64,000 nucleotides of DNA, taken from contig JAUCBJ010008295.1 in assembly GCA_032718475.1 (NCBI GenBank), positions 62,202 to 126,201 on the forward strand, given 5' to 3'. This stretch comes from Nemertoderma westbladi. Lineage: Eukaryota > Animalia > Xenacoelomorpha. The notes below the pieces were generated by a model. That model ran no database searches and was not told where the DNA came from. It saw only the letters and a program-made list of their open reading frames with translations. A program made the position numbers and the translations under genes. Of the stretch, positions 2,240-35,924 are shown in pieces (the stretch's first letter is position 1; each line of letters begins with the position of its first letter).

Positions 2240-3910
2240 TAACTCATATTAATTGGTACTTGTTAATTCCTATGTAACTCATTAATTCATATGTAACTCA
2301 TTAACTCCTACGTAAACTAATTAACTCTATATAACTTTACTCATTAATTCATATGTAACTCATTAACTCTGTGTAACTAATTAACTCCTATATAAATAAT
2401 TAACTCCAATATAACTCATTATATCCTATGTACCTGATTAACTCTATGTAACTAATTAACTCAAGTGTAACTCATTACATCCAATGTAACTCATTACATC
2501 CAATGTAACTCATTACATCCAATATAACTCATTAACTTATATGTAACTCATTATCTCCTATGTAACTAATTACCTCCTATGTAACTCATTAACTCCTACG
2601 TAACTAATTAACTCTATGTAACTCGACTCATTAATTCATATGTAACTCATTAACTCTGTGTAACTCTTTACATCCAATATAACTCATTAACTTATATGCA
2701 ACTAATTAACTCCCATATAACTAATTACCTCCTATATAACTCATTATCTCCTATGTACCTGATTACCTCCTATGTAACTCATTAACTCCTATATAACTCA
2801 TTAACTCTATGTAACTAATTAATTCAAATGTAATTCATTAACTTTGTGTAAATCATTACATCCTATGTAACTCATTAACTCATTGACTCCCATGTAACTC
2901 ATTAAATCCTATGTAACTGATTAACTCATTGACTCCCATGTAACTCATTAACTCCTATATAACTGATTAACTCATTGACTCCCATGTAACTCATTAACTC
3001 CTATGTAACTGATTAACTCATTGACTCCCATGTAACTCATTAAATCCTATGTAACTGATTAACTCATTGACTCCCATGTAACTCATTAACTCCTATGTAA
3101 CTGATTAACTCATTGACTCCCATGTAACTCATTAACTCCTATGTAACTGATTAACTCATTGACTCACATGTAACTCATTAACTCCTATGTAACTAATTAC
3201 CTCCTATGTAACTCATTAACTCCTATATAACTCATTAACTCTATGTAACTAATTAATTCAAATGTAATTCATTAACTTTGTGTAACCCATTACATCCTAT
3301 GTAACTCATTAACTCATTGACTCCCATGTAACTCATTAACTCCTATGTAACTGATTAACTCATTGACTCCCATGTAACTCATTAACTCCTATGTAACTGA
3401 TTAACTCATTGACTCACATGTAACTCATAAACTCCTATGTAACTGATTAACTGATTAACTCATTGACTCCCATGTATCTCATTAACTCCTATGTAACTGA
3501 TTAACTCATTAACTCCCATGTAACTCATTAACTCCTATGTAACTGATTAACTCATTGACTCCCATGTAACTCATTAACTCCTATGTAACTGATTAACTCA
3601 TTAACTCCCATGTAACTCATTAACTCCTATGTAACTGATTAACTCATTGACTCCCATGTATCTCATTAACTCCTATGTAACTGATTAACTCATTGACTCC
3701 TATGTAACTGATTAACTCATTGACTCCTATGTAACTCATTAACTCCTATGTAACTGATTAACTCATTGACTCCCATGTATCTCATTAACTCCTATGTAAC
3801 TGATTAACTCATTGACTCACATGTAACTCATTAACTCCTATGTAACTGATTAACTATTGTGTAACTCATTAACTCCTATGTAACTGATTAACTTATTACC
3901 TCCTTTGTAA
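2240..3910. repeat. AT-rich minisatellite, ~19-bp unit TAACTCATTAACTCCTATG, becoming a ~46-bp compound unit in the 3' half
   Basis: Tandem TAACTCATTAACTCCTATG / TAACTGATTAACTCATTGACTCCCATG units. Confidence 0.95.
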
Positions 3911-4703: not shown

Positions 4704-5621
4704 TCAAGCAGTTTGTACTGAACCCAAAACTTCGTTGGAACCATTTTCTATAATCTTCTTAACCCGCTGGCGAAATGATTTACTCATGAACACAAAGACT
4801 AGAGGGTTTATACTGAGGTTAATGAGTAGCAATAGGAACATCCAGAATGGTGTAGAGGCGTCTGTGACTACCATCCCGTAAATATTGTCTACCACGTTTG
4901 GTGTCCAACATACGAAGTAAGTAATTCCACACACTATAACTGTGAATACCAAGTTTCGTTCCCTGATGGTGGAGGTGGCGACCCCTAGCGGTGCGACGCG
5001 GTTCCGCAAACGGCGCATCCATCTGTAAATAGCGCCGTAGCAAGCGCACATAATACACAGAGGCACAACCCAGTCATCAGTTATATAAAATATGTTGACT
5101 GCTGTTGTGTAAGAGTAGCTGCTAACATCCAATATGCACTTGTTTTCTTGAGTTACGTTTATAATAGAGTATAGAAATAATTCTTGCGCATTTCCATAAA
5201 TCCAAGCAAACGCTAAAATTGGCACATATACAGCCTTCCCGTTGCTATGGTTACGATGCTTGATAGGATGGCACACGCTAGACCACCTATCCATGTACAA
5301 TAGGTTAAGACTCCAGACAGATGTTTATATGATGCCCCACATTGGAAGACTGCTCCACCACAGCAGGCAGTAGGTGTAGTTACCTGGGTAACCAATGGGT
5401 GTTCGAGTTTTACCTTCTATGCTACTCACTGCAAATATTAATCCGGCCAGCAGGTTTGCCACTGATTGGTTAATCATTATACGATCGGATAACAGATAGG
5501 GAATCTTGGATAGCCAATATATAAATAGGTTAAAACCGTTTATCACCACTGCTAAACAACCAATCAAAGTGTAGATCACAATAATTACAATATTGTCAAA
5601 ATCCATATCGATGAACAACAA
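4704..5621 (-). pseudogene. Intronless class A (rhodopsin-like) GPCR with one in-frame premature TAA in TM3
   Basis: ORFs 5325..5621 and 4704..5300 are in the same frame, separated only by TAA at 5325-5327 (GII*TSVWSLNLLYMDRW). TM1 IGCLAVVING, TM2 NQSVANL, DRW (DRY-like), TM6 YFVCWTP, TM7 NLSINPLVF. Likely ATG at 5606. Confidence 0.85.
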
Positions 5622-6350
5622 TATTGAAATTACGAAACATTGAAATTAAGAAGCATAAAAATGAATAACAATTGCAACTTGAAAATTTAACATTTATTAT
5701 TATATTACTATTACTGTTAGAAGTTCAGTTGAAAGATTGTATATTATTAAGAGAGGATAAGGCCAACACCCACTGTAACATTAACCCGCGGTAGTAGTTG
5801 AGTGTGGCAATAAATAATAAGAAATATTAATAACAACGCATCAGTACCTTGGTTTGGTATGAATTGAGTAGTCCGTTAATACCCACCCGTAATAGCGGGG
5901 GATTTGTTGTTATCACTCCACAACACAAACTTGCAAGGATGTTTTCCCACAAGCTTTATATTAGAGTTGTGTATACTACTTAACTTTAAACCATTTTACT
6001 CGACTTAGCATAGTGTTTTGCTGTTATTTTACCATAGCTTCCGATCTTATACCCATTGGTTTGATTATGGCCTGTTTCTCTTCTATCTTTGTGCAATACA
6101 CAATGAAATGTAATGGAGGTTGCATTTTGTATTCTGCTACTGCTCTGCAGGTGCTGCCGTAGATTTCGCATTGTAACCTCATCAACTTCCTTTAAGAGTT
6201 GCTCCATAAGTGAGTTAGTTAAAATAAATTTAATCACTGAGTTTAATGAACGATTTTAAAGATCATGGGAAGTTAGCTGGATGGCTGATCCTGATAGAGG
6301 CTGTGCACAATTGATTATATACGTAATTGAATGCTCCAGGTGTATATTCA

Positions 6351-6964
6351 ATGCACAATACACGTTGCGGCTAAGTCAACAATGTACAATACATGTTGCG
6401 GCTAAGTCAGCAATCACAATACATGTTACGGCTAAGTCAACAATGCACAATACACGTTACGGCTAAGTCAGCAATGTACAATACACGCTACGGCTAAGTC
6501 AGCAATGCACAATACACGTTACGGCTAAGTCAGAAATACACAATACACGTTACGGCTAAGTCAGCAATCACAATACACGTTACGGCTAAGTCAGCAATGC
6601 ACAATACACGTTACTGCTAAGTCAGCAATCACAATACACGTTACGGCTAAGTCAGCAATGTCCAATACACGTTACGGCTAAGTCAGCAATGTACAATACA
6701 CGTTACGGCTAAGTCAGCAATGCACAATACACGTTACCGATAAGTCAGCAATGCACAATACACGTTACGGCTAAGTCAGCAATGTACAATACACGTTACG
6801 GCTAAGTTAGCAATGCACAATACACGTTACGGATAAGTCAGCAATGCACAATACACGTTACGGCTAAGTCAGCAATGTACAATACACGTTACGGCTAAGT
6901 TAGCAATGCACAATACACGTTACGGATAAGTCAGCAATGCACAATACACGTTACGGATAAGTCA
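6351..6964. repeat. Minisatellite, 30-31-bp unit CAATACACGTTACGGCTAAGTCAGCAATGCA
   Basis: About 20 tandem copies visible. Confidence 0.95.
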
Positions 6965-8213
6965 GGTTTGACATTATGATGAATATTATCATCAATAATG
7001 CGATTGATGCCCATCTATCATCATTGATAAATCATATATAACTTGACATTTAGCCATCGTCGAGAGATCGGTTGTGACTGATCAAACATCGCTAGCGTAT
7101 AATTACTTTACGACTTATAATCTAGAAATAGGTACAACACCTGTAATTGCTATCATCCATACACTATGTAACCGCTGGTGAATGAGAGCCTACCACTTCA
7201 TCCGTTCGTTTCCTATGGATTACAGATGTAAAAGACCTGCCGTATAAAGTTATACATTTTGTACATCCTGTTTTACTTACGTATTTACTTAACATAATAT
7301 TACCATATACGAATAAAAAAAACTACAGCTAAAAGCGATGGAATATTACAAGTATTTCATTGCAGCTAAACTTATAATGCAATACATCATAGCATTGAGA
7401 CATTGTTTTAAAGGCATAGTTTGTTTGTCTCCAGCTGATGTCAGCAATACATACACAAAAAACATGTATAGTGTACACAGATGCCGCTATCCTCAATCAT
7501 GTCAGCTTTGAATCAGGGGGATTATGTTTCAACTATATTAGTTACAGTTTTAAATCATTGTAAAGATCTCGTCTAAAGCTGGTTTTACTTAGCGACTAAA
7601 TTCAGATAGGGGGGAGGGGAAACTGGACGCAATAAAAATTAATCCCTCTCCAGGGGAAATTCGACGCAAATAACAGTTGATTACTCTCAAAAATAAAATT
7701 GTCACCTGTTCTATTGCGTTTAGTTTATTGTTTTGGTTAAAATAACGTGCCACTGTAACCTGCTCCTTTCCCTAAATTGAGAATTTAACATTGAGGCGGG
7801 ATATTAATTCGCCAAGATGGTATTGCCGTCCAGCCCACCCCCCCCCCCCCCCCCCCCCCCTACCCCCCCATGTCTCACTAAATGTCCCCTCTACTGTGAT
7901 ATGTTATCCCTCTGAGTTACAATGTGTTGCTTAACACTAAGGTCGTTAACTACTGTTAAAACTTGGCGATTAAATAGATAGCTACATTACACGCCGTAAA
8001 GTGAATTGCCACACGTTTTATGTTACGCTACCGTAAAGTAACATAAATATTTTATTTTTTGTTTAATTACTTTATTACTTTTGCAGAATATTTCAAAATT
8101 ATTATTCCTTATAATAATTTATTGTAACTTTATCGCTCATACTTTTGTAATTTTAGCTCGATTTCTGACCAACCTGCTTCTTTTACACAATACTTTTCAA
8201 CCAATAAAGAGCG

Positions 8214-8759
8214 TGTGGGAAGGGATTCAAGCAGCCATGAACGTTGGATATTGTGTTGGGTGGGAAGGGATTCAAGCAGCCATGAACGTTGGTTATTGTG
8301 TTGGGTGGGAAAGGATTCAAGCAGCCATGAACGTTGGTTATTGTGATGGGTGGGAAGGGATTCAAGCAGCCATGAACTTTGGTTATTGTGATGGGTGGGA
8401 AAGGATTCAAGCAGCCATGAACGTTGGTTTTTGTGTTGGGTGGGAAGGGATTCAAGCAGCCATTAACGTTGGTTATTGTGATGGGTGGGGAGGGAATTCA
8501 AGCAGCCATGAACGTTGGTTATTGTGTTGAGTGGGGAGGGATTCAAGCAGCCATGAACGTTGGTTATTGTGTTGGGTGGGAAGGGATTCAAGCAGCCATG
8601 AACGTTGGTTATTGTGTTGAGTTGGAAGGGATTCAAGCAGCCATGAACGTTGGTTATTGTGATGGGTGGGAAGGGATTCAAGCAGCCATGAACGGTGGTT
8701 ATTGTGTTGAGTGGGGAGGTATTCAAGCAGCCATGAACGTTGGTTATTGTGTTGAGTTG
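8214..8759. repeat. 45-bp satellite, left arm (interrupted by the LTR element)
   Basis: Unit GGGAAGGGATTCAAGCAGCCATGAACGTTGGTTATTGTGTTGAGT; resumes in register at 36761. Confidence 0.97.
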
Positions 8760-9960
8760 TGTAAAAGCCTTTGCTGAATTGCCCCGTTATTTTTATTATC
8801 TTTTACATTAAAATACTCTGTAGTTGATTTAATAGGTGTAAGAGACCGTATTATTGCTGTATCGGTGTTTTTTAGAGGATCTAAGACCTATTTCCTCTGT
8901 ATGTGTACTGTGAAAGGCATAGTTGATGATTCTATGGCAATTCCATGACGCAAAGGGTGATAGCTACTCTTGAACAGTAGTTACTATGACTACGGTTAAC
9001 AGCTGATATTCATACGTGTTGATTTTCTTTGTTCTACGGCGTCTCTCAGTTCAGTCAGCCAATCAGAGCATTTTTATGGCTCTTGTAGAGAAATTTCCTA
9101 GAAATCACGTAATGCTTTATGTGCAGTGTTTACATTCTGTCCTGAGCCAGGAGAGAGCGGCTTGGAAATATTTTGTGCTGTTCTGTTTTTAGCCTAACAC
9201 TAGTAGGCTTAATTATAAGGACATATATCCGTTATCTCAACTCAAATCATAACATACCATACCTAATCAAACACTGTGCATACTTTATATTGTTATACTG
9301 CTATTTACTGTCGGTCCTTCATAATATGGTTGATGAATTATTATATTTGGAATAACGATAAATAACCCCGAAACCCAATATTCTTGATATACCGAAGGTA
9401 AGAGAGAAAGGTTATATATAACGATTGTGACTTATGTTGAAGTGGTTTGAAGTGAATCTAATGTTATTTGATAGACCCTACATGAGTCGGTCCGTGTTCC
9501 TTTTATATGTGACTAAAATCAGTGAAGATCGGCAGATTAGTCTGCAGTATTGTGCAGCATTGTGTATGAGTGAGACTGATAACGAAGCATTTCCTAAAGA
9601 ATGAGCCATATATGTGAATTATAACTAAGCCATATCGTTGTGAGTAGTTTAAGTCATAACTCTGTTTATATAGATAGAGCGCCACGTCCTAAAGGAACTG
9701 TTAATATTTCCCGAAGGTGAATAATATTGTCAGAGATTATATAATACTGTCAGTCGAATAATACATTAGGCTTACATAGCAATAAGATTAAGCCGTCGAA
9801 CCCAATCTCCCGGGTATATCCAGCGGGTGAATGATCGCGCACAGATTGGTTTCGACTAGTGTAGTGAATCAAATACTTGTCATAGGCTAAAAGTGATTTA
9901 TTATCTAAAAGACATCCTAATTTGGCGGGTTAAACTGCCAAAGGTCTGAAAGCGCGAACA
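8760..9960 (+). repeat. E1 5' LTR (1201 bp)
   Basis: TGTAAAAGCC...GCGCGAACA; near-identical to 23524-23888 + 35925-36760 (about 5 substitutions seen by eye). Confidence 0.97.
9055..9069 (+). promoter_or_regulatory. CCAAT box (NF-Y-type) in the LTR U3
   Basis: AGCCAATCAGAGC is conserved in the otherwise diverged E2 LTR (minus strand near 35593-35605), upstream of the inferred start site. Confidence 0.55.
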
Positions 9961-9972
9961 ATAACGGATATA
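9961..9972 (+). promoter_or_regulatory. Non-tRNA primer-binding site candidate of E1 (self-complementary to LTR 9224-9235)
   Basis: ATAACGGATATA directly after the LTR is the reverse complement of TATATCCGTTAT at 9224-9235; no TGG-initiated PBS follows the LTR. Confidence 0.75.
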
Positions 9973-10027
9973 GCTTCTTTATTGCAGTAAGCAATAAAGT
10001 TGAAAGTACCGGTCAACCGGTAAACCT

Positions 10028-10152
10028 GAACGGTACATCTGTAGGTCAGTAGGCCCAACTGCCAGAACCGGTACTGCCATAGGTCCGTAGGTCCAACTGC
10101 CAGAACCGGTACTTCTGTAGGTCCGTAGGCCCAACTGTCCTAACCGGTACTT
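10028..10152 (+). repeat. ~36-bp tandem repeat in the E1 leader
   Basis: About 3.5 copies of ACCGGTACTTCTGTAGGTCCGTAGGCCCAACTGCCAGA; conserved in E2 at about 34475-34600. Confidence 0.85.
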
Positions 10153-10334
10153 CCAGTATAAGTACATTAGTATTATTCGAATTTGATAATTATATACCGG
10201 TAGGTCTTAGTACTTAATCAGGGAACGGCCGCCCTGGTTTTTTATTGAGATTTTTACTTATTTCTGTCAAGTTTTATTTGTTTGTAGGCCAGTATTGAAC
10301 AGAAGGCGTGTAAGCCTGATCAGATTGTACAGAC

Positions 10335-10905
10335 AATTTGTAGGCTGAGCTGTTGTCTGATTGTTGTTAAGTCTGAACGGATTGCAGTGTGTGTAGATCA
10401 TCTGTCCGATAAAGAACGGTTAGGAAGTAGGGGCAGCCAATGCTGTAAGGTAAACCCCCAACTAAAGAATAAGTCGTACTACTGGGTTAGAACGCATACT
10501 ACCTAATCATTTCGGAGTCTGCATGTCCTGTAGTTTATTTAGGCTTGAGAGTAGTCTGCCATCGTTTAGTCTGTACTTTGTTTGTGTAAGTCTGTACGGG
10601 TAGCGTATAATATTTATTTAGATAATTTGTAGGCTGGATAGTTGTCTGGCTGTTATTAGGTCTGAACGGATTGCAGTGTGTGTAGAGCCTCTGTCCGATA
10701 AAGAACGGTTAGGAAGTAGGGGCAGCCAATGCTGTAAGGTAAACCCCCAACTAAAGAATAAGTCGTACTACTGGGTTAGAACGCATACTACCTAATCATT
10801 TCGGAGTCTGCATGAGCTGTAGTTTATTTAGGCTTGATAGTAGCCTGTCAGTATTTGGTCTGCATTTTGTTTGAGTGGTTTGTACGCGTAGCGTAATATT
10901 TATTA
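10335..10905 (+). repeat. ~290-bp direct duplication in the E1 leader
   Basis: AATTTGTAGGCTG...GTCTGAACGGATTGCAG...CATTTCGGAGTCTGCATG...GTAGCGT occurs twice; E2 has the matching duplication at about 33745-34300. Confidence 0.85.
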
Positions 10906-12215
10906 TTCAGAGTTTATGCGATTATTCGCAACATTCATTCCCCAAGTTTGTTCCTACAATAATTGTGTTTGTTATACATACCGTTATAGTTAAATTAACC
11001 CCGGTACTACACGGGCTGCTTGGCGTAGGTAAAGACTGGTGATTTTGTGCACCGGTCACTCCAGCAGATGCCGTGGTTCTTTTAGCTGTTCAAGTATATT
11101 TAACTACTGATTATATGTTGTACAAGTACTCGTACCTAATTTAGGGTTTAGTATACAGTGCTTTCCGAAAGTAATTAGTGTAGGCATTATATTTGTGTTG
11201 TAAAGTGGTTGATAGGCACGTTCGATTAGCTCTATTAACTTCTAGGTAGGAACACTCCGTGATACATAACGTAGTACCTATAGCGATACGGCTATAGGTC
11301 GTCAGGCGGTGGTATTTTCCTATCTGGACAACGCAGTGTATTTACTACTACGTATTATTTTCAAATACCGCAGTACCCTGTCCGTTGTAATAACCAGAAT
11401 TCTAACCCTTTGTTAGGCTGGTTTGTAGACTTCTTGTAAAATTACCCTGAAAATTCGTATTTTGTGTTTTTGTAAATTTTTGTGTTTATTTAGAGATTGT
11501 AATCTCACCCGAATTGTACGTAATTTGTAGTATTAAGTAACTTAGGTAAATTAGTATTATTTGTTTTAGTGTCTTATAAGTAACACTTCACTGAAAGCGC
11601 ACCGCTTTGTGTAGTGATTACTCCCCATAAATAATAACATTTATTTCAAACATCGACAAAACCCATTAAAACGGGTATATATATATTATAAATCAAATCT
11701 AACGATTTATAAATAGTAGGCCTACCATACAACCATTAGGTCTCAATATCAGTTGGATTACTGCTCAAATAACGGTAATAAAGTAAGTAAAGTAACCAAG
11801 TAACCCTAAAATTCAGAAATTCAATTATTTAAAATAATTGATATACCGGTATTTACGATAGGCCTATTATCTTTATTTCTATAAGTTTCGGCTGAAATTA
11901 TACCGGTACTTGTAATTAATTCTAGTCCAGAATTATATATACTATAAACTGTAAGCTGTATACCGGTATTCCCGATAGGCCTATTATATATTTATATACA
12001 TTTGTGCTAAAATTATACCGGTATTCTGTGATAAACCTAGTCTGTAATAATACTTATATATACAATAAGCATACCGGTATTCTAATATATTATATATATC
12101 ACGCTACACTGAGTAGCAGTATCGGTAATTAATTACTAGGCTAGCAGTTAACACTGAATTACTAGACTTGCTTAGACTGTAATATAGCGGTAGACATTCA
12201 ACTGTGTAAACAAAC

Positions 12216-15200
12216 ATGTCTGATACTAAGCAGAACTTGTCAGACAGTTTATTAGATGTAACTATCTGCGACTCAGATAGAGGTGTAGAACCGTCTAGTC
12301 CTAAGTTCAGTTCACCTCCCACTGTGAGGAAGGTCATCCCTCCTGTAGTAATAACAGAACCTAGTCTGGTCCAACATCGTAGGTCTATCATAGGCACTCG
12401 AGCTCAGGTCAAGCGGGACCAAGAAGCAGCGGAACAGCAACAACCCGCGAGCCAAGAACTTATTTCTCAGCGGCCCGACAGCTCCAGTAGTGAAGATACG
12501 GTAGAACTGATACCCGAACGCGGAGCAAGGATGACGGACGAGGCTTATTCAGATCCCCTTCTCATCCTTCCTGCAGCCGTACTCACTAGGTTATTGATCG
12601 CTGTGGAAGAACACCAGATCGATTGGGCGAGAAGCCAGCGTTCAACTAGAGATAGTTATGCTGGATACACAAGGGAAGAACTGAAGTCCATGGTCGAGTC
12701 GCAATGGAACTTCCCCGGACCCGGACTCCCGTTTGATTTATCAGAAGCTGCCTGGGAAGACATACACCGGATGGGAGTAGCCAAGGAAACCATCGATCCA
12801 GCTGTGTGGAAGAGGTCCGCAGCCGGATACGCACAGGGATTCTTCAACTCTATGGAGAGAGTAGAAAAACAACTGTTACAACAACCTCAAGGACCTCAAG
12901 AGCAGGGACAGCTGCTTTATCAAGTTAGAGAAAGAATTCTGCGAATTAGGCTAATATTATCAGCCTTTGAAGAGGCTTCTAAAAGAAGACAAGACACGTC
13001 GTTGCAAGTTGCCGTAAAGACTTGGTTTCAACGGGTGAGTCGCCAAGTTCAAGGAACAGCTCAGTGGAAAGCTCAGCTGGAGGAGCGCTCAACCCATGGA
13101 GAATCAACAGACGCTACTTTTTCCCAAGTGGAAAGTGAAGCGACGGCAGAGAAGCCGCATAAGAGGGATGCCATTGACATCTATCTGTCAGACTATCAAC
13201 GTTTTTTAGGTGATGACGAGTTGAGGAGAAGGTTAGAGGGACTTAGCCCTAATAGTGAAGGAACCAAGCTTGTGTTGGATGCCATTGATGTGGAAATGAG
13301 GGCTGCGAATCAGGCTAAATTTGATGAACAACTCCGCATCACACGAGTCCAAGAAGAACAAGTAAAGAAAAAACGTATAGAAGACAGAAAGAAAGCAGCA
13401 GTGGTAGCTGCAGAAGCAGAAAGAAAAGCGGCAGCGGCAGAGGCAGCGGCAGAGGCAAAAGTGGCAGAAGCAGAACGGAAAGCGGCTGAAGAAATCACCC
13501 AATTAGAATTGGAAAACATTCAGGAGAATCAAGACTGCATAAATAAACAGTTAACAGCTAGTAATATGCAGATGATGAATCGATCTACTCCCAAAAGGCA
13601 GGGATATACATCATCTGAGGAAGGCGATACCACCGACACTGAAGGCGGAGGAAATCGATCTCGCCTAAGCAGACGTAAAAGAACATTCCACCGTCAGAAA
13701 TTGCCTGATTTGCCTCCAGCTGTTAGAAGGCAACTAAATAACACCAACTTAGCGAGTACAGAACCCACAGACCAAATAATTACAATAGAGAGACTCCCTA
13801 CTATAGTAGATGAGCCTGAAATAATTAGGCCTGTTCCCGAAGCTACCCTTTCGTTCGTAGAGACACCTGTACTCCCTGAACCTACCTCTCAATTCCCGTT
13901 GCACAGCACTAAGCTACCTGTGCCCAGTAGAACAGCCCATGAGACAGTTCATGCTCTGGACTCCGAGCGGAATGTTCATGATTTGTCGCCTGTTGTCCCT
14001 CGTCCGCCCGCTACAACGTTGGCGGATCCCGTTTCGGCGGTTGATTGGGTGGACGAGAGACGGCGGGGGATGGACATTCTCCTCGGAAAGATGGAGGAGA
14101 ATCAAAGGCGCTCCTCCCAACAGGTCCGAGAGTTAGAAGGGACTGTTCAACAGTTAAAGGGAACCGTAAAGGAAAGTAGGTTAGAGTTGCAGGAAGTGCA
14201 GCAAAATATCGCGTTAGAACGTGATAAATTAGTAAATTTACAAAAGGGTATACCACCACCCCTTGTAACAATGTGTCAACCTGTTAGGTCTGAAGTATCT
14301 CATGCGCAAGGTGTGGAGCCTACACGCATCTATACTGCTAGCGAAGTAGAAACTCCTATAGTGAACCCTATTAAGGGTAATTATAGACCTGTTGATAATG
14401 ATATTCCATATAGAACGGATCATAATCCGAGAAATTTATATACCGATAACTCGATATTAAATAACACGATGGCCCAAGAAAGTTTTACGCGTCAAATGGC
14501 TAGAACCGAAGCCCGGCAAGCTGTAAAGGTGGGAGAGATTGTAAAGTTCAATGGAGATGAGATGAAATGGTTACCTTTTAATGAATATTACAAAGATAAC
14601 ATACAGAACTATGTGCTATCTAATGGAGAGAAACTTAGATACCTCATCGAATGCTTGGAAGGATCTCCCAAGTTAATGGCATTAAAGTTTATTGGACATC
14701 CAGACGGATTAAGACAAGTTTGGGATACACTAAACATCAGGTATGGTAATAGGAATAACATAGCTGGGTATTTGTATGCAAAGTTGGTAGCGCCCCGAAA
14801 GTTTATTAGCAGCGGAATTATCGAGTTTTCCGATGAGATTCAGGAGATCTGTAGACAATTAGATTGGCTAGGTAAGTCTCAGGAGTATCAGAATGCTATG
14901 GTTATTAGAGCAGTGGCTTCTACTTTACCGAAGGGTGGAGTAGGTACACGCTGGGATAAGAAAGTGTTATATATGATGGAACAACAACGACGAGACCCTA
15001 CCATGGCTGATCTAATGTCATTCCTAGATGGAGAAGTGAAATTACAGCTCCTGAAACTGTCCAGAGAGAAGACACCGGAAAACAAGGTAAGTGAAAAACC
15101 CGTCTCTAGGAGAAAGGTAACACCAGTGTGTTATACAGACGACGGCGAAAGCCAGACTTCTCAAGGAGAAGATAGCGGAAAAGACACTGATAGATCTTAT

Positions 15201-18200
15201 TACGTAAATAAAATGCCTAAAGATCAGGTAAGTAAATTCAAGTCTCGAACAAATGACAGGAGAGAACAGGTAAGAAAAACTCCTCCTACGTCTCCCAAGA
15301 GAATTCAGGTGAGAAAGCCCGAAGAAAAAGCAAGTGTACACAATGTGACTCAGAGTAAGGTGAGTAACATCAAACCGAAATGTGCGCTGTGTGACGGGAC
15401 CCACCATTTGAATATGTGTGATAAATTCCTGAAGAAGTCATTAACGGAGAGACGTGAAGTCATGTGGGACAAGCGGTTGTGTTATAATTGCCTCAGACAA
15501 GGACATCAACGGCGAACCTGTTACTCAGACATAAGGTGTGCAAAGTGTGGTGCGAAACATCATATCTTGTTGCACGCTGAATTCGATCGAAATAGTCCTA
15601 ATCAGGTAAGTGATTCCGAACTACATGTCCAATTCAGTGATGTGAACGACACTGATCAATCTGAGATGGAAGGATTCTATACGGACGAGTTCTCCGACGA
15701 AAACGAATCCTGTTACATGATAAATACCGCAGTGTATCGAGCACTCACATATGAAAAAGATACAGACAGCGACTTCACTCTAACTACTTCTGAGCGACAA
15801 CCATCGTGGAAAGCACCAACTTCCAATGTAGGAATCCGAGAATTTCCTGTAGTCCAGTTACGGGTCCATGGACCTCAGAAGAGCTATATAGTGAACGCCC
15901 TCCTGGACTCCGGCAGCACAGGAACATTCATTGATAAAGAACTAGCCGAAGACATCTTCGCTGGACAACCTAAGTTCCGAACCAAGCTAAATATGTCAGG
16001 CATTATGCAAGTTTGGAAATCTACAGTAACAGCTGATTATTATGTAGGCGCGTTGTCCACCCCACAAGACGAACTAGGAGAACATAGCATAAGGTCGGTG
16101 AAAATGGTGGCTATAAAGAACTTCGCTACTACTCAAGCAGACCTTTATAATTGGGACGAGGATGAGAGCATCCAACATCTTAAGATACCTCGATTCCAGA
16201 CTGATTATCCTGGAGTGCAAATACTCATCGGCCAAAACGCGCATGAGGCGCTGGAGACATTGGAGAAACGGCCTGCTCAACCGCAGCCACTACAGACCTA
16301 TGCGGTAAGAACTAGAGTAGGTTGGTACTTTACTGGCCCTTCCCGTAGAACACTCAGAGAAAGACTACCGCAAGAGCGCGTCTACCAGGTGAGTGAATGG
16401 GAAGATGATACTAGTGAGGGAGACGATTTAACTGAGGGAACCCCATACTCCTCAGATAACGACGACGTTCACCAGCTTTTTGATGAGGAGAATACCATCG
16501 ATCTCCTTAAGGAAAACGAGGCTTGGCAAAACCAAGTGAACTTATGTCAACTTCTTTATCCAACTGAACGAGAAGCTTATAACGACGAGTTAAATGACGT
16601 CATTGAGCGTTGTAATGCCAAGACTCGAGATGAACATGCCGTAAGATTCTTTACGCAAGAGGCGGTAGAGCCCAATTCCTACGATAAAGCCTTGTCGGTG
16701 GAAGAGGAAAGGGCCAAGCAGATCCAAGAGACAACTACACGTTTCCTCAAAGATCAAGGTAGGTATGAAGTCGGTCTACCTTTCCGCAAGAGAGAACCGA
16801 AGTTCATCAATAACAGACCCTTGGCGGAAAAAAGAATCGCGCAACTCCATCGACGCCTTACGGCTAATTCTTCAGCTAAAGCAATGTATCAAACACAGCT
16901 GGAGAAATTTATTAGTAAGGGATACGCGGAGAGAGTACCGGAAGAAACACCTGTGACTGAAAGAACGTATTACTTAACTCACCATTACGTTCCTAAACCC
17001 GGTAAGCCACATGAAGTGAGAGTAGTGTTTGATGGCTCCGCTCTTTACATGGGTCAATCCCTTAACTCTGAATTGTTACCCGGACCCAACTTACTTCAAT
17101 CTTTGTTGGGAATTCTTTTAAGATTGAGACAATATTCGATTGCTTTCGCCTCCGATATAGAAGGCATGTTCTTACAAGTCAAGGTGTTAGATAGGGATCG
17201 AGATAGTTTACGATTTCTGTGGTGGCCCGAAGGAGACCTCAACATGAAACCGGTGGAGTACTGGATGACCATCCAGGCCTTTGGGATAATCTCAAGCCCT
17301 TCCAACGCCTGTTCGGTAGTGCGTACCACTGCAGAGGACAACCGAGAGGCCTTCTCTAAGGAAGTGATCGACAACATCAAGCGAGACATATACATGGACG
17401 ACAATCTGAAGTCCCTTCCATCAGTTGAGGAAGCCATTGAGGTCGCTAAAGGAACGGTAGAGTGCTTAAAAAGAGGTGGGTTTCGATTAACGAAATTCAC
17501 CAGCAACTCCCGTGAGTTTCTGGAGTCGATCCCTGCGGAAGATCGAGGGGCGAAAGATCTAGATTTGATCAAAGATGATCTGCCAGAAACCAAGACACTC
17601 GGCTTGAAATGGGACACAGAGCGAGATATCCTGTTTTTCCAGCTAAAACAGCGAGATAATCCAGTTCGAACCAAACGGATTTGCTTAAGTATACTGAGCA
17701 CTTATTTCGATCCATTGGGATTTATTAGCCCAGTTATATTGATTGCTCGTAGTTTGGTACAACAAATGTGGCTTGAAAACCACTCATGGGACGATCCACT
17801 TAAGGGAGAATTATTAAAGAAGTGGATGAAATGGGAAGATTCTCTGCCGGCTATCGAGGATTTTATAATTTCCCGTTCATATTTTGGTCATGTTCTCCCT
17901 ACGTATTCCTATCAACTCCATGTGTTTGGAGACGCCAGCGATATGGGAATAGGTATAGTAGCCTATCTAAGAGTGGAAACTCCGGATGGAATCAAAGTCG
18001 CCTTAGTTACTTCTAAGGCATTAATCAACAACAAGTTGAAAGTTCCTCGAGCGGAGTTAAAAGCGGCTCTATACGCTACAGCCATCGGCCGGAATGTAAC
18101 AGAACAGATTGACTATCCATTAGAGAAAACTGTCTATTGGACCGACGCTTTACTCGTGTTAGAGTATATAACCAATGAAGTCTGTCAGTTCAGCGTCTTC

Positions 18201-20276
18201 GTTACCAACAGAGTAGCCATCATACTTAGTCGCACGACGATGGACCAATGGAGACATTGCCCCGGAACGATTAATCCAGCAGACATCGCCTCCCGAGGAG
18301 CGACTCCAAAGGAATTGGTAAATACTCCCGAATGGTTAGGTGGACCCGACTTTCTCTACAGAGAAGAAGAAGAATGGCCTCCCCATCTCACAACAGCAGA
18401 GATCAGACAGGCCAAGGGAGCGGAGAAAGTTAAACCCAAAACTCGAGCGAGTAAATCGAAGTTGTTTAAACCTGCGGTTGATCTATCTGTATTATTTACT
18501 TCCGGAGAGGATGCTTTGGATCAGAAACCCACAGCCACGGATAAAGAAGTCTTAGAAATCCGTGACAAGGATTGGAAATCTGGAATACCAGATATTTCGC
18601 AAGGACTCTCACCTCTCTTGCAGAGAGTGATACGTCATTACAGTTCCTGGAATCGGCTCTGTAAAGCCGTCACCTATTTAAAACGATGTTTTCATCATCG
18701 TTACTCCGGGACAAAGACCAATAGTGATGATGCTCCATCAACATCTGCAAGAGTCCATGTTGTTAAAGATCTTCCTAAATATAAGATATCCGACAGGTTT
18801 CTAAAGGAGAAGATCAGTTACCAGGAGCATGATGAAACCAACAAACAGATGCTGAGACTCCTACAATGCTATGAGGATCCCGATAAGTATTTCCTGTTGT
18901 TAAGAAATCCGCAGATGCGCTTAAGGGATCGCTTCTCTAGTACCATGATAGATGGGTTAATACGTGTTGGAGGCAGGCTCACCAACGCCCCCTTATCCTT
19001 TGACACTAAGTTTCCCATACTCATTAGAAATCTTGACATACAAATCAAGATGATTGTAGATGTTCATAGCAAACTGTATCATGCTGGAAGAGAACGAGTT
19101 CTGAGCGAAATTCGAACTCGCTACTATTTTTATAAACCCCGTAGGGCTCTGAACCAAGTCCTTAGGAACTGCATACCCTGTAGGAAAGCATTCAGTAGGC
19201 CTTTGACACAGCGAGAGGCAGAATTACCTAGGGAAAGAGTAAGCTTCTATGAACCACCCTTTACTAATACCGGTGTGGATTTATTTGGCCCTATTGAAGT
19301 ATATCGTGCCCGGACTATAGTCAAGAGATGGTGTGTCATCTTCGTTTGTATGACTTGTAGAGCTATCCATCTCGATATGGTAAACGATCTATCCACCAAC
19401 AGCTTCGTGTTGAGTTTACGACGACAGATCGCTCGCTTCGGAACCAGTAACACGATGAGATCGGATAAGGGAACGAACTTCATTGGCGCCAACAACGAAA
19501 TTCAAGCTTTCGTAAAGGACTGGAACAAAAGACAGGTGGACGATCAGCTAAGGATAACAGCGTCTAGCTGGACCTTCAACGCCGCCGACGCCCCTTGGTG
19601 GGGAGGAAGTTGGGAGAGATTGATTAGGAGCGTGAAGACTGCGTTCCACTTTATTGTGCCTTGTCGCGCTTATCTCACCGACGAACTATTGCGGACGTTA
19701 ATGGAGGAAATCGCCGCTTATCTCAACGAAAGACCGCTTATGCCAGTCTCTTCAAGTCCTGATTCCCTGGAAGCGCTAACACCCGCGCACTTTCTACTGA
19801 AGAAACCCGTAGCCATGCTCCCACGATCGGAGATCACAGACGGAGACGAGTACTGCCGTCGAACCTGGCAACTTATGCAGTTGCTATCCCGTCGTTTCGC
19901 TGACCATTTCGAGAAACATTACCTGCCCACTCTACAACTTCGAACTAAGTGGTTTGCGCAGCAAGAAAACGTCAGCGCTGGAGACATGGTGCTTATTGTG
20001 GACCCCGATCTCCCACGTAAGCGATGGCAAACAGGACGTATCATCGAGACTCATATCTCGAGCGATGGTTTGGTGCGATCAGTAGAACTCGTCGTCATGC
20101 GGCGTAACTTTAAGAAACCAGGGATAGTCTTTGAGACTCAACAGCTCAACCGCCCAGTGGGTCGTTTATGTTTACTGGAAAGAGACAGAGAGCTCTCCGG
20201 AAACTATGGAAGGCAAGAAACTCTTCCCACGACCACTTCCCTAATCCAACCGACATCTAGGGACTCCCCAACTTAA
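12216..20276 (+). CDS. BEL/Pao Gag-Pol polyprotein (2686 aa)
   Basis: Gag core FNGDEMKWLPF, triple knuckle CALCDGTHHLNMC / CYNCLRQGHQRRTC / CAKCGAKHHILLH, protease ALLDSGST, RT VRVVFDGS..DIEGMFLQ..YMDD, Pao-type RNase H LHVFGDAS..PRAEL..WTDA..NPADIASRG, integrase H..H..CIPC, GVDLFGP, RSDKGTNF, GGSWERLI, C-terminal WQTGRI. Confidence 0.97.
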   Translation: MSDTKQNLSDSLLDVTICDSDRGVEPSSPKFSSPPTVRKVIPPVVITEPSLVQHRRSIIGTRAQVKRDQEAAEQQQPASQELISQRPDSSSSEDTVELIPERGARMTDEAYSDPLLILPAAVLTRLLIAVEEHQIDWARSQRSTRDSYAGYTREELKSMVESQWNFPGPGLPFDLSEAAWEDIHRMGVAKETIDPAVWKRSAAGYAQGFFNSMERVEKQLLQQPQGPQEQGQLLYQVRERILRIRLILSAFEEASKRRQDTSLQVAVKTWFQRVSRQVQGTAQWKAQLEERSTHGESTDATFSQVESEATAEKPHKRDAIDIYLSDYQRFLGDDELRRRLEGLSPNSEGTKLVLDAIDVEMRAANQAKFDEQLRITRVQEEQVKKKRIEDRKKAAVVAAEAERKAAAAEAAAEAKVAEAERKAAEEITQLELENIQENQDCINKQLTASNMQMMNRSTPKRQGYTSSEEGDTTDTEGGGNRSRLSRRKRTFHRQKLPDLPPAVRRQLNNTNLASTEPTDQIITIERLPTIVDEPEIIRPVPEATLSFVETPVLPEPTSQFPLHSTKLPVPSRTAHETVHALDSERNVHDLSPVVPRPPATTLADPVSAVDWVDERRRGMDILLGKMEENQRRSSQQVRELEGTVQQLKGTVKESRLELQEVQQNIALERDKLVNLQKGIPPPLVTMCQPVRSEVSHAQGVEPTRIYTASEVETPIVNPIKGNYRPVDNDIPYRTDHNPRNLYTDNSILNNTMAQESFTRQMARTEARQAVKVGEIVKFNGDEMKWLPFNEYYKDNIQNYVLSNGEKLRYLIECLEGSPKLMALKFIGHPDGLRQVWDTLNIRYGNRNNIAGYLYAKLVAPRKFISSGIIEFSDEIQEICRQLDWLGKSQEYQNAMVIRAVASTLPKGGVGTRWDKKVLYMMEQQRRDPTMADLMSFLDGEVKLQLLKLSREKTPENKVSEKPVSRRKVTPVCYTDDGESQTSQGEDSGKDTDRSYYVNKMPKDQVSKFKSRTNDRREQVRKTPPTSPKRIQVRKPEEKASVHNVTQSKVSNIKPKCALCDGTHHLNMCDKFLKKSLTERREVMWDKRLCYNCLRQGHQRRTCYSDIRCAKCGAKHHILLHAEFDRNSPNQVSDSELHVQFSDVNDTDQSEMEGFYTDEFSDENESCYMINTAVYRALTYEKDTDSDFTLTTSERQPSWKAPTSNVGIREFPVVQLRVHGPQKSYIVNALLDSGSTGTFIDKELAEDIFAGQPKFRTKLNMSGIMQVWKSTVTADYYVGALSTPQDELGEHSIRSVKMVAIKNFATTQADLYNWDEDESIQHLKIPRFQTDYPGVQILIGQNAHEALETLEKRPAQPQPLQTYAVRTRVGWYFTGPSRRTLRERLPQERVYQVSEWEDDTSEGDDLTEGTPYSSDNDDVHQLFDEENTIDLLKENEAWQNQVNLCQLLYPTEREAYNDELNDVIERCNAKTRDEHAVRFFTQEAVEPNSYDKALSVEEERAKQIQETTTRFLKDQGRYEVGLPFRKREPKFINNRPLAEKRIAQLHRRLTANSSAKAMYQTQLEKFISKGYAERVPEETPVTERTYYLTHHYVPKPGKPHEVRVVFDGSALYMGQSLNSELLPGPNLLQSLLGILLRLRQYSIAFASDIEGMFLQVKVLDRDRDSLRFLWWPEGDLNMKPVEYWMTIQAFGIISSPSNACSVVRTTAEDNREAFSKEVIDNIKRDIYMDDNLKSLPSVEEAIEVAKGTVECLKRGGFRLTKFTSNSREFLESIPAEDRGAKDLDLIKDDLPETKTLGLKWDTERDILFFQLKQRDNPVRTKRICLSILSTYFDPLGFISPVILIARSLVQQMWLENHSWDDPLKGELLKKWMKWEDSLPAIEDFIISRSYFGHVLPTYSYQLHVFGDASDMGIGIVAYLRVETPDGIKVALVTSKALINNKLKVPRAELKAALYATAIGRNVTEQIDYPLEKTVYWTDALLVLEYITNEVCQFSVFVTNRVAIILSRTTMDQWRHCPGTINPADIASRGATPKELVNTPEWLGGPDFLYREEEEWPPHLTTAEIRQAKGAEKVKPKTRASKSKLFKPAVDLSVLFTSGEDALDQKPTATDKEVLEIRDKDWKSGIPDISQGLSPLLQRVIRHYSSWNRLCKAVTYLKRCFHHRYSGTKTNSDDAPSTSARVHVVKDLPKYKISDRFLKEKISYQEHDETNKQMLRLLQCYEDPDKYFLLLRNPQMRLRDRFSSTMIDGLIRVGGRLTNAPLSFDTKFPILIRNLDIQIKMIVDVHSKLYHAGRERVLSEIRTRYYFYKPRRALNQVLRNCIPCRKAFSRPLTQREAELPRERVSFYEPPFTNTGVDLFGPIEVYRARTIVKRWCVIFVCMTCRAIHLDMVNDLSTNSFVLSLRRQIARFGTSNTMRSDKGTNFIGANNEIQAFVKDWNKRQVDDQLRITASSWTFNAADAPWWGGSWERLIRSVKTAFHFIVPCRAYLTDELLRTLMEEIAAYLNERPLMPVSSSPDSLEALTPAHFLLKKPVAMLPRSEITDGDEYCRRTWQLMQLLSRRFADHFEKHYLPTLQLRTKWFAQQENVSAGDMVLIVDPDLPRKRWQTGRIIETHISSDGLVRSVELVVMRRNFKKPGIVFETQQLNRPVGRLCLLERDRELSGNYGRQETLPTTTSLIQPTSRDSPT

Positions 20277-21110: not shown

Positions 21111-21921
21111 TTTAATTATCAAATAATAAAATTTCAGGGAATAAATTTAAATTCATGCCTTTTAATGAATTTAATAAATTGCCATTTTTACGCAATTTAT
21201 AACATTCCCAAAATTCCATTAATTAATAGATCAAGGGAGCGGAGATTTGTCTTATTATGAGTATGAGTGTGCGAAAGTCTCCCAAACATGGTCAATAGCC
21301 GATAAAATTCATAAAGTCATGTATCAAACAGGACATTGACTATTAAAGAATTACTATTAAATAACATCCCAGATCTGTATGCATGGGAATTACTCTAATT
21401 CTACCGCTAGCTTTGCATAATGTCACCATGGCAACAACCACGCTAGAATTAGAATTGAGTTAAAAGAACAATAGAAAGCTTGTCCCATTGAATAGCATAG
21501 GGAATAAATAGCGCACTGCTAGTATCCAAGGATACATAATAATACAGTGACATTCTGGAAGGCATTGACTAACGGACAAATGGCCCGAATGTGCGTAGTT
21601 GTGACCAGTTGTGTGGTATTTGTGAGTTTATAGGTGAATGTTACTGCTAAAGTGTGTTTACAGTAGCTAGTCGCAATCGTGAAAGTAACCTAACTCTCCA
21701 AGGAAAACCTGAAGTACATCTAAGCCTTTGGGACAGACAGTGGAGTGACTTGTGCCGGTTGTCGTTGTCGTTGTGCGGCTACGTCGTTGGCGAAAGTACG
21801 GCGGCGACGACACATCGGCGCTGAGGATCTCGCACTGTCCGGGGGCTGATTGGGGTAGGCAGCGACGCCCGCTCGCCTAAATATAAACTCATTATAATAT
21901 GGATAAATTTATATAGCAGAT

Positions 21922-23052
21922 ATGATTGAGTTGATAGAAGATGATCTTGGTATCAGGGAGCGATATACTCTACCTTTACAAGCGTTTGTTGATAGCTTGA
22001 TACATGGCGACGCTGGTCCAACTGCTACGGAGGACGATGATCGTTATATCGAACCGCCAATGTCCCAAGAGCAGCTCACGCGTGAGTTGGACTATAAGAA
22101 ATTCACCGCTCGCTATACGCATCGTAATGGTACGTATGTGGACTTCTTAACTACTGGTCATCCTATCGATTTACACGATACGGACAATGTCGACACCAAA
22201 AGGGAAATGGTACGATTGAAATATCCTACCCAGCGGAGGCGGAACGATAAACCGAGAATGGAACACGAGAATTCTATTCGAATCAGACTCGAAAGAGAAG
22301 ACGTTGAGGAGCCGGATAAACGCAGCGACTTCAACGATTATCTGGAATTCCTGATAGAAACATATCTCAATATTGCCAGTCAACAAAATCTAGAAACTCA
22401 ATATCATCAAGGTATACATCATGACCGCATGGTAGAACTCAAATGGCTCGATTCCCCTATGATGTATCTTACCGCCGATCGACCGCTACCTGTTGTACCG
22501 AATAGCTTCGAACGGATGGAGGAATATTGTAAGCTGGAGAAAGATCACTCGCGTTTCCCCTATAAGACGTACGTTTTTGGGTATTATTGCGATGAATGCC
22601 CAAGACCCAACCAACAAACGGAAAGACATAAACATCCGCGGAGACGTTGCTTTAAACACGGTTTTACTCGCTATACTTACAGGAGTTTCGAGCGAAACTT
22701 GTTCAATGTATCACCTACGCTCGTTCGACTCAGACGATCCTTAAATAAACCAATGATCAGAGTTTCGGAATACTCGATCAGAGCTCCTCATTCCCTAGTG
22801 AGACCTCAGACTCTTGATCCTATTAGTATGACGGATCCTCCCGAGCTGTACTCACTGCTCAAAGATCTAGTGTTACCTGAACGATTAGTCGGTGGCACCC
22901 CAGTTGTGGGTTTCTTAGATATTAGCCCATCCTACCTAGCCGGATTGGGACGCGGACATTTAATATCGTCGTTTAACCCTTACCATCGTCCCGGCTTGAC
23001 ACGATATAACCTGTCACCAGAGTGGCGGAGAACGTTGTACCAAACGAGTTAA
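21922..23052 (+). CDS. E1 accessory ORF2, 376 aa, unknown function (no signal peptide or TM segment seen; Cys/His cluster)
   Basis: Long ATG ORF in the env position; first ~120 aa conserved with E2 ORF 26111..26509; YCDEC..HKHPRRRCFKH motif; preceded by TAGCAG|ATATG in both elements. Confidence 0.75.
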   Translation: MIELIEDDLGIRERYTLPLQAFVDSLIHGDAGPTATEDDDRYIEPPMSQEQLTRELDYKKFTARYTHRNGTYVDFLTTGHPIDLHDTDNVDTKREMVRLKYPTQRRRNDKPRMEHENSIRIRLEREDVEEPDKRSDFNDYLEFLIETYLNIASQQNLETQYHQGIHHDRMVELKWLDSPMMYLTADRPLPVVPNSFERMEEYCKLEKDHSRFPYKTYVFGYYCDECPRPNQQTERHKHPRRRCFKHGFTRYTYRSFERNLFNVSPTLVRLRRSLNKPMIRVSEYSIRAPHSLVRPQTLDPISMTDPPELYSLLKDLVLPERLVGGTPVVGFLDISPSYLAGLGRGHLISSFNPYHRPGLTRYNLSPEWRRTLYQTS

Positions 23053-23523: not shown

Positions 23524-23888
23524 TGTAAAAGCCTTTGCTGAATTGCCCCGTTATTTTTATTATCTTTTACATTAAAATACTCTGTAGTTGATTTAATAGG
23601 TGTAAGAGACCGTATTATTGCTGTATCGGTGTTTTTTAGAGGATCCAAGACCTATTTCCTCTGTATGTGTACTGTGAAAGGCATAGTTGATGATTCTATG
23701 GCAATTCCATGACGCAAAGGGTGATAGCTACTCTTGAACAGTAGTTACTATGACTACGGTTAACAGCTGATATTCATACGTGTTGATTTTCTTTGTTCTA
23801 CGGCGTCTCTCAGTTCAGTCAGCCAATCAGAGCATTTTTATGGCTCTTGTAGAGAAATTTCCTAGAAATCACGTAATGCTTTATGTGC
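23524..23888 (+). repeat. E1 3' LTR, left fragment
   Basis: Matches 8760-9124; ends at TGTGC (E2 TSD). Confidence 0.96.
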
Positions 23889-25142
23889 TGTACGCGCTTT
23901 TGGAAGACCTTTAGCAGTTTAACCTGCCAAAATTTATATGTCTTTTGGTTTATCAATATACTTTAGAAGATGACAAATATTTAATACCAATAAACACAAC
24001 ATTAGCAGAAGCCAGCCTAGTGCGCGTCCATTCACCCGCTGGATATTCCCGGGAGACTGGATTCTGAGGGCTTAGATTATTATTGCAGTGAAGCTTACTG
24101 TATTATTCGATTGATCGTTAATAAATAATTTCTGACTAATATTATTCACTTTCGGGAAATATTAACAGTTCCTTTAGGACGTGGCGCTCTATCTAAGTAA
24201 ACAGAGATATGACTTATACTAATCACAACGGTAAGTCGGTAAGGCTTATGATTCACGTATGAGGCGCATTCTTTAGGAAATGCTTAGTTATCGGTCACAA
24301 TCATGCACACTACCGGTAACACACAATACTGCTCATTAATTTGCCGCCCGTCAATGTATTTTATCATATATAAAGGGAATAGCAACGGACCAATGTAGTG
24401 CTTATCAAATAGCATTAAATTCACTACAAACCACAACAATATAAGTCGCAATCGCTATATATATAACCCGTCTCTCTAACCTGTAGTGTATCAAGAAAAT
24501 TGGGAAATTTGGGTTCTTTATATATGTTCTCCAAATAATATTCAACCAAACACAACAGTAAATAGCAGTATAATAATGTATGTTGAACAGTAATAACAAC
24601 AAAGTATTGAATTGTGAATGGATTTGACTGATAACAGCCATACGCTCTATAATTTAAGCCTACTAATGTTTCTTCTTAAAGTATGAAAAGAATTAACTCT
24701 AGAGCCGGTGTTTCTGGCTTAGACAGCAATAACAACAAAGTACCAAGTAAAAAACAGTAAGACTGAACACTCTCCTTATGATCGGCCGAAAAGCTACACG
24801 TCGACAGGAAAAATCGCTCTGATTGGCTCAAGCCAAACAAAGAACCATGCGTCCAATGGCTGTTTCCATGTCAGCAACCAGCTGTTAGATGTCGTAATAT
24901 GAATCATCACGGCTAAGCTGTGAAAGGTAGTTGGTGCATTGCAGGCTTTTTGCCTTACCATGTCCGCCAAAACACGTATATAGCAGAATGACTTTTATGT
25001 CCGTTAAAACACCTGTAACGGTACCTTGAGGGCGAGGGGAATATTTATACAGTTAGAGAACCTTTTTAGAGTATTCCAGCGCCTGGGGGGAAACTGGATT
25101 GCGAAGCAAAAGGGCCAGTTATATCCCACAGAAGCTTTTACA
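23889..25142 (-). repeat. E2 3' LTR (1254 bp)
   Basis: Minus strand TGTAAAAGCTTC...GCGCGTACA, preceded by the PPT; about 4 differences from 34666-35919 seen by eye. Confidence 0.96.
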
Positions 25143-25220
25143 CCGCTCCCAGAAAATGGGATTTGAGTCTATACAATATACAAAATCACAGTTTCTAATA
25201 TACGTAAATACTCTAAACAG

Positions 25221-34654: not shown

Positions 34655-34665
34655 ATGACTGTTAT
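34655..34665 (-). promoter_or_regulatory. Non-tRNA primer-binding site candidate of E2 (self-complementary to LTR 35408-35418)
   Basis: Minus strand ATAACAGTCAT directly after the 5' LTR pairs with minus-strand ATGACTGTTAT at 35418-35408. Confidence 0.75.
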
Positions 34666-35919: not shown

Positions 35920-35924
35920 TGTGC

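Follow-up and report, generated by a model that had tools for sequence, protein, structure and literature searches.

Retrotransposons Tf1 and Tf2 of Schizosaccharomyces pombe, which represent the Tf1/sushi group, have no tRNA primer-binding site (PBS), and their PBS has its complement in an LTR segment of about 11 nt. In Tf1, an R-U5 duplex is required beside the primer duplex, and a U5-IR-like stem-loop, the subject of work by Lin and Levin in 1998, is reportedly needed as well. The first 11 bases of Tf1 pair with the PBS and are severed from base 12 by RNase H (PMC7175516). Tj1 (PMC4600332), the start sites of Tf2 (PMC5341516) and further background literature (PMC8220671) belong to the same context. 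In plants, self-primers have been predicted for Tcn1 (gypsy) and TAR/Houba/Osr-1 (copia) with the rule that the 5' LTR holds a complement of at least 10 bp to a site 0-5 bp after the LTR (PMC6317226). Self-priming has thus been described for gypsy chromoviruses and for some plant copia lineages (PMC7175516, PMC6317226). In the case of the copia-type, tRNA-primed Ty1 of Saccharomyces cerevisiae, a pseudoknot adjoining the PBS is needed for reverse transcription (PMC3592414).

In BEL/Pao surveys PMC554778, PMC3118150 and PMC6238403, word look-up in the main texts found neither 'PBS' nor 'tRNA', and BEL/Pao is not among the elements modelled in the part of PMC3601003 that presents LTR models. Our literature search, conducted mostly at the level of titles and abstracts, with most subscription journals and Repbase outside its scope, gave no report of self-priming or of splice-made primers in BEL/Pao elements. 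The element Cer7 reportedly carries its own tRNA-like primer, for which the same search gave no confirmation.

Two nested BEL/Pao elements

The window, i.e., the whole 64-kb stretch of DNA that was analysed, contains two related LTR retrotransposons, E1 and E2, of which E2 sits within the 3' LTR of E1 (Table 1). Both are BEL/Pao (Belpaoviridae) elements. They have TG...CA LTRs and 5-bp target-site duplications (8755-8759 and 36761-36765 for E1, within a 45-bp satellite; 23884-23888 and 35920-35924 for E2), and the Pfam domains of the single E1 gag-pol, namely, DUF1759, protease, RT, Peptidase_A17 (RNase H region), H2C2 integrase and DUF5641, follow the BEL/Pao order of protease-RT-RNase H-integrase. 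This domain set is complete in E1 and partly deleted in E2, where most of the RT and integrase sequence is missing. At least 120 homologs of E1 have the same domain set and are 37-44% identical to it over the RT/RNase H region; the named nearest ones among the matches listed come from echinoderms, fish, molluscs, a cnidarian and chordates. Descent from Tf1/sushi (Ty3/gypsy chromoviruses) is ruled out by the BEL/Pao-specific Pfam domains, with no chromodomain match. E1 and E2 differ from the named BEL/Pao relatives in their 1.2-kb LTRs, 2.2-kb leader and extra 381-aa ORF. The latter has no match in Pfam or Atlas, and the matching region of E2 is apparently split into shorter frames.

The LTRs of E2 differ at 4 of 1254 nt (99.7% identity), and E2 has its own primer/PBS pair despite the loss of most of its RT and integrase sequence. 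If E2 was mobilised in trans, the enzymes would recognise structure, not primer sequence.

Other repeats of the region include a duplication of 289 nt at 10335-10904, within the E1 leader, the 45-bp satellite that flanks the E1 insertion (8215-8754 and 36765-40575) and tandem arrays of 19-bp (2263-3893), 31-bp (6349-6965) and 10-bp (47696-49455) units. A fragment of a rhodopsin-family GPCR gene (7tm_1, Pfam), which accords with an animal host, lies on the reverse strand at 4704-5324.

Table 1. Features of E1 and E2 in the window; helices, introns and primers are predictions.
Feature	Position	Strand	Remarks
E1	8760-36760	+	LTRs 1201 nt; intact gag-pol
E1 5' LTR	8760-9960	+	1201 nt; TGT...ACA ends
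Conserved U3 block, E1	9196-9219	+	ends in TATA-like hexamer 9214-9219
Putative self-primer, E1	9224-9235	+	12 nt complementary to PBS
Helix iii 5' arm, E1	9246-9250	+	5 bp with 9831-9835; stretch variable among subfamilies
Predicted LTR intron, E1	9398-9673	+	276 nt
Helix v, E1	9796-9808 with 9843-9855 (span 9796-9855)	+	RNAalifold on both U5 regions
Helix i, E1	9832-9840 with LTR end 9952-9960 (span 9832-9960)	+	
Hairpin ii, E1	9921-9942	+	8 bp, 6-nt loop
PBS, E1	9961-9972	+	immediately 3' of LTR; no TGG
Hairpin iv-a, E1	9977-9999	+	9 bp; AATAAA in 3' arm
Hairpin iv-b, E1	10007-10022	+	6 bp and 4-nt loop; two palindromic hexamers
38-nt tandem repeat	10031-10153		E1 leader, after hairpin iv-b
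E1 gag-pol ORF	12210-20276	+	intact; 2688 codons stop to stop
E1 extra ORF after pol	21907-23052	+	381 aa
E1 3' LTR	23524-23888 and 35920-36760 (span 23524-36760)	+	two pieces, E2 between
E2, nested BEL/Pao element	23889-35919	-	LTRs 35919-34666 and 25142-23889, 1254 nt
Putative self-primer, E2	35408-35418	-	11 nt; pairs with PBS
Helix iii 5' arm, E2	35391-35399	-	9 bp with 34812-34804
Predicted LTR intron, E2	35257-34970	-	288 nt
Helix v, E2	34843-34831 with 34795-34783 (span 34783-34843)	-	
Helix i, E2	34807-34799 with 34674-34666 (span 34666-34807)	-	encloses hairpin ii
Hairpin ii, E2	34708-34687	-	inside helix i
PBS, E2	34665-34655	-	within PBS/hairpin iv block 34606-34665
Hairpins iv, E2	iv-a 34651-34629; iv-b 34621-34606	-	

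The primer duplex and the U5 folds

Neither PBS begins with TGG, and ARAGORN found no tRNA in the 64-kb window. Each PBS is perfectly complementary to a segment of its own LTR about 730 nt upstream, over 12 bp in E1 and 11 bp in E2. All 11 aligned pairs are kept in both elements, three of them by compensatory changes on both sides, and the own pairs (-13.3 and -12.4 kcal/mol) are far stronger than the swapped E1/E2 pairs (-2.4 and -5.5 kcal/mol). Contiguous matches as good were rare among 200 shuffled PBSs (p<0.005 for E1, p=0.005 for E2). With an LTR complement of at least 10 bp to a site that follows the LTR by 0-5 nt, and with no tRNA PBS, E1 and E2 conform to the same rule as the plant self-primers, although they belong to another superfamily and kingdom. 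Judged by these comparisons, the self-complement is real and strong, and self-priming appears well supported. One of the four differences between the E2 LTRs (35415) lies in the primer segment, where the 5' copy matches the PBS and the 3' copy would form a wobble pair.

An earlier note on this DNA had described a covarying RNA scaffold around the primer, composed of a pairing of the LTR end with an upstream U5 site (helix i), a U5 hairpin (ii), a pairing of U5 with bases just 3' of the primer (iii) and two hairpins after the PBS (iv-a and iv-b). Every sequence and coordinate quoted there is present in the window. The covariation was overstated, given that helices i, ii and iv together show one compensatory change in 31 pairs, and the set was incomplete, for it overlooked the best-covarying U5 helix (v), which crosses helix i.

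Helix v comprises 12 pairs with three both-side changes, one one-side change and one mismatch exchanged in place, and it closes a conserved loop of 34 nt. Among all helices valid in both E1 and E2 (1024 aligned columns, the covariation being that of two independent sequences), exactly two have at least 11 Watson-Crick pairs and at least three both-side changes, namely, the primer/PBS duplex and helix v, and none of 150 block-shuffled alignments gave any such helix. A third helix with three both-side changes (9221/9615) has 8 pairs, 7 of them Watson-Crick, and overlaps the primer. Results of this comparison indicate that helix v is the covarying part of the U5 scaffold.

Since the 5' arm of helix i, like the U5 arm of helix iii, lies in the loop of helix v, helices i and v cross. 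The H-type pseudoknot is an established topology, and the arm order would fit it, the 5' arm of i being separated from the 3' arm of v by 2-3 nt; the loops predicted for E1 are of 23, 2 and 95 nt. Nested folding, in which pseudoknots cannot be drawn, produces a trade-off in E1, with probabilities of i and v of 0.89/0.11, 0.08/0.92 and 0.38/0.62. In the case of E2 it chooses helix i and leaves v at 0.00-0.03, which counts against v there unless the two helices coexist. A two-state switch between i and v would fit as well as a pseudoknot.

Helix i retains 8 of 9 pairs in both elements, with a single mismatch (A.A or G.A), a duplex energy of -10.3 kcal/mol and shuffle p values of 0.018 (E1) and 0.042 (E2), and the compensatory swap described earlier (9835/9957) is indeed there. 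The covariation that was read from it is nevertheless at chance level when taken alone, because helices of its class (at least 8 Watson-Crick pairs and at least one both-side change) arise in 61% of 150 block-shuffled alignments. Pairing of the LTR end with the upstream U5 site is plausible. Hairpin ii was rightly described as retaining its pairing (median pair probability of 0.95-1.00 in 16 of 16 folds), with two one-side wobble changes and no compensatory one. Hairpins iv-a and iv-b are kept in both elements, iv-b folding as a 6-bp stem with a 4-nt loop. None of their 15 pairs varies between E1 and E2, so that they provide no evidence of covariation. According to the folding models, ii and iv are stable hairpins that are uninformative on covariation. 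The AATAAA in the 3' arm of iv-a is the only one between the start of the E1 LTR and 10100, and the palindromic hexamer of iv-b occurs in six copies in the E1 leader. The segment comprising U5, PBS and leader folds better than 200 shuffles (z of -4.6 and -4.4, values that hold for a segment starting at 9815 or 9826, which leaves the 5' arm of v outside and favours i). A structured U5 adjoining the PBS is likely. A search of 8700-12300 against Rfam gave no matches.

Helix iii, as noted before, is stronger in E2 (9 bp, perfect; shuffle p 0.035) than in E1 (5 bp). Its probability in an E2 RNA starting at the primer is 0.29-0.33 when free and 0.72-0.81 when the primer duplex is forced; in E1 (-3.3 kcal/mol, probability of at most 0.01) it is not predicted to form. 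Two matching changes can be seen by eye between the E1 and E2 5-mers, in 5' arms that lie in a stretch with no in-register alignment, and the arms of the helix are out of register in the E1/E2 alignment. Helix iii also overlaps helix i by 4 nt, including the sole compensatory pair of the latter. In these models helix iii is likely to be an extra specific to E2. It is this R-U5 duplex that would close the loop of about 700 nt proposed earlier; the E1 models do not predict it, and helix i is its competitor. A second helix upstream of the primer, conceivable by eye, was rejected (probability of at most 0.02).

In comparison with Tf1, whose supporting duplexes may have counterparts here in the differently supported U5 helices v, ii and i and in an R-U5 duplex of E2 only, E1 and E2 are BEL/Pao elements with no chromodomain match and with about 730 nt between primer and PBS. 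Their best-supported U5 element is a helix that crosses the LTR-end pairing, and the transcription start and the cleavage are predicted. The likeness to Ty1 is one of position, the pseudoknot of E1 and E2 being a prediction.

Population variants were taken from Logan contigs of four of the seven listed runs, aligned to E1; contig depth is no measure of copy number, and the window itself may derive from the best run. Both partners of one helix v pair vary, 9805 (A>G) at 21-71% of depth in the four runs and 9846 (T>C) at 9-26%. Among the variants listed, those at 9843 and 9855 (v), 9927 (ii) and 9981 (iv-a) preserve pairing by wobble, those at 9834 and 9850 are located at mismatches, the one at 9854 (about 5%, two of four runs) would break one v pair unless its partner changes too, and none reaches 3% in the LTR end of helix i (9952-9960). 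A comparison of stem and loop variant counts (2/34 vs. 19/101, p 0.10) was discarded, the 3' arm of v having been scored as loop. A PBS variant with two changes (9961 and 9965) accounts for 53-74% of contig depth in three of four runs; in run X4 both changes have equal depth and come from one contig. No partnering primer change is present among the primer-region variants listed (40 of 139), which counts against the self-priming account. Since depth at 9237 is far below that of the LTR core, divergent primers may have been clipped. Directly after the primer, at 9237-9284, the collapse of depth and clustered insertions mark a stretch that varies between subfamilies.

Putative primers of BEL/Pao relatives

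Relatives were sought by a profile scan of metagenome contigs, and the best 79 of at least 491 BEL/Pao loci were analysed; they form 56 families at 80% identity, and many of the non-matching ones have no LTR sequence in the contig. For 14 loci the LTR ends were defined by repeats or terminal motifs. Nine of them have a PBS (offset 2-4) that perfectly matches, over 11-15 bp, the junction formed by splicing of a GT-AG intron in the LTR, each with no match as good in 200 shuffles; two have contiguous 10-bp matches and three have none (L038, L065 and L005, the last scored at a misplaced LTR end). L038 and L065 have defined LTR ends and no self-complement was found in either; in L038, TGG stands one base after the LTR, and this element may be tRNA-primed.

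An unsupervised scan, for which 26 of the 79 loci were untestable, found junction matches of 11-15 bp in 19 of 53 testable loci, compared with 19 of 636 cross-locus controls. Pairing was stronger for the spliced form than for each of the two unspliced sides in every one of the 20 cases computed. In the 56 distant families, the PBS is complementary to a splice junction in 17 and has a contiguous complement in 7. This tally includes loci accepted by eye from a relaxed scan that had no null model (junction: L016, which also passed the 14-locus test, L034, L042 and L074; contiguous: L027, L051, L057, L058 and L070). The relaxed-scan hits in L021 (at 684), L028, L037 and L066 were rejected, and L056, with a 3-nt second exon and weak sites, was removed from the junction set as likely false. 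Putative junction primers are exemplified by L015 (1201-1277 and 1394-1408), L022, L033 and L079. L002/L005, L004, L023, L030 and L031, whose introns range from 139 to 371 nt, share an 11-nt PBS that differs among them by no more than one change. A search for contiguous complements of the kind used in plants would miss the splice-junction form of these 17 families.

In a tree of 79 rows, built by a quick method and with E1 as a long branch of unsure place, contiguous and junction forms are neighbours at least twice (L021/L042, support 99; L070/L074, support 86). The LTRs of E1 and E2 also contain predicted introns, whose junctions lack complementarity to the PBS. In both, the predicted intron is followed by the best-conserved block of the LTR. 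Removal of the intron would reduce the distance from primer to LTR end to about 460 nt in both elements, while the genomic RNA must retain it.

With the primer duplex forced in 21 relatives, the enclosed 49-247 nt show no excess of stability over shuffles (z averages -0.36, with 4 of 21 below -2), and pairing of the LTR end is not enriched (10 of 21 above the shuffle mean). Long-range pairing just 3' of the primer exceeds the shuffle mean in 16 of 21, which gives mild support to something like helix iii in general, not to its E1 version. Searches of metagenome and viral contigs with the exact LTR motif gave no matches, nor did scanning of viral contigs at the protein level bring up any relatives. 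From the sequences of these loci, self-priming looks lineage-wide in BEL/Pao, with no shared scaffold found in the 21 relatives. The intron-free primer is likely to be one state of a lineage-wide mechanism, the commoner state being a primer built by splicing of an LTR intron. A broader proposition, which we advance tentatively and would not yet favour over its opposite, is that much of BEL/Pao dispenses with tRNA priming, most members splicing an LTR intron into the primer, some having lost the intron, and the E1/E2 family using an H-type pseudoknot that ends at the PBS.

Proposed mechanism and its alternatives

The account that we consider probable, taken as a whole, is that of self-primed BEL/Pao elements with an 11-12-nt LTR primer, a U5 fold of helices v and i and the following course of events. 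Transcripts would start at the primer or shortly before it. U5 would fold into helix v and hairpin ii, and the loop of v would capture the last LTR bases as helix i, either together with v in an H-type pseudoknot or as two alternating folds. Such a fold would anchor the RNA at the starting point of DNA synthesis and keep the PBS accessible to the primer, with hairpins iv-a and iv-b flanking the PBS on its 3' side. The two ends would be joined by the 12-bp primer duplex itself, more than by helix iii, and the LTR segment would probably become the primer after an RNase H cut at its 3' end. The primer would remain attached and serve as the template of the next PBS, so that the joint change of primer and PBS would be explained.

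The position of the transcription start bears on the first alternative, which we regard as unlikely. According to it, transcription starts just past the segment, so that the segment belongs to U3, and the primer comes in trans or from the 3' end, its source being either the 3' LTR in a second packaged RNA or a short LTR transcript; there would be no 700-nt loop to close, and the U5 folds would merely present the PBS. The U3 regions of E1 and E2 are barely alignable except for the LTR start, an E-box-like site, a CCAAT box and the block at about 9196-9219, which from its sequence is likely to be the core promoter. In E1, the TATA-like hexamer of this block is followed at a spacing of 30 nt (9214 to 9244) by an Inr-like match at 9242-9248, a combination that would place the start 3' of the primer, as this alternative requires, whereas no TATA match was found in E2 with the pattern used for E1. 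An Inr-like match also lies 25 nt before the primer in both elements. The motifs thus permit a start on either side of the putative primer. As Inr-like motifs are not enriched before the primers of the relatives (8 vs. 9 of 24), start sites are not inferable from them. Supply in trans gains from the weakness of helix iii in E1 and from the junction-type primers, since the template must keep the LTR intron while the primer needs it removed, a conflict that a separate primer RNA would solve. Against it, an E1 RNA that starts at the primer is predicted to form the free primer duplex in cis with a probability of 1.00, and Tf1 acts in cis (PMC7175516). The fall of this probability to 0.02 when 25 or 84 unspliced upstream bases are added counts against the account preferred here, and cleavage after nt 11 is an assumption.

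We find it improbable that the scaffold of the earlier note exists exactly as drawn, with i, ii, iii and iv together around a primer of the first 11 nt in the manner of Tf1. When the primer duplex is forced in E2, the core of i (0.95-0.98), ii and iii do form jointly, and the pairing 3' of the primer in the relatives points the same way, but intact E1 gives at most 0.01 for iii and 0.06-0.38 for i, besides which i and iii share nucleotides, v is omitted and compensatory change is nearly absent. Very improbable is priming by a host RNA, with the LTR/PBS complement as a long-range contact and the U5 and leader folds serving 3'-end processing, packaging or dimerisation via the palindromic repeats, or integrase end recognition: hairpin iv-a masks AATAAA, the iv-b palindrome is repeated and LTR ends are conserved for integration anyway (PMC3601003), yet TGG is absent from E1 and E2 and lies within 3 nt of the LTR end in one of 13 relatives, and the PBSs, diverse as they are, each match the LTR of the same element, in many cases only once an intron is spliced out.

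Self-priming within the LTR, as preferred here, would extend this mode of replication to a third superfamily, the priming of which is left undiscussed in the literature that we found. The window offers a natural pair of young elements in which primer and PBS bases are swapped and for which a specific U5 fold is predicted. Self-priming would also explain why a PBS is missing in tRNA-based annotation of such elements, and it provides a simple rule to find them. The relatives link primer formation to host splicing, which would offer the host or the element a switch of replication.
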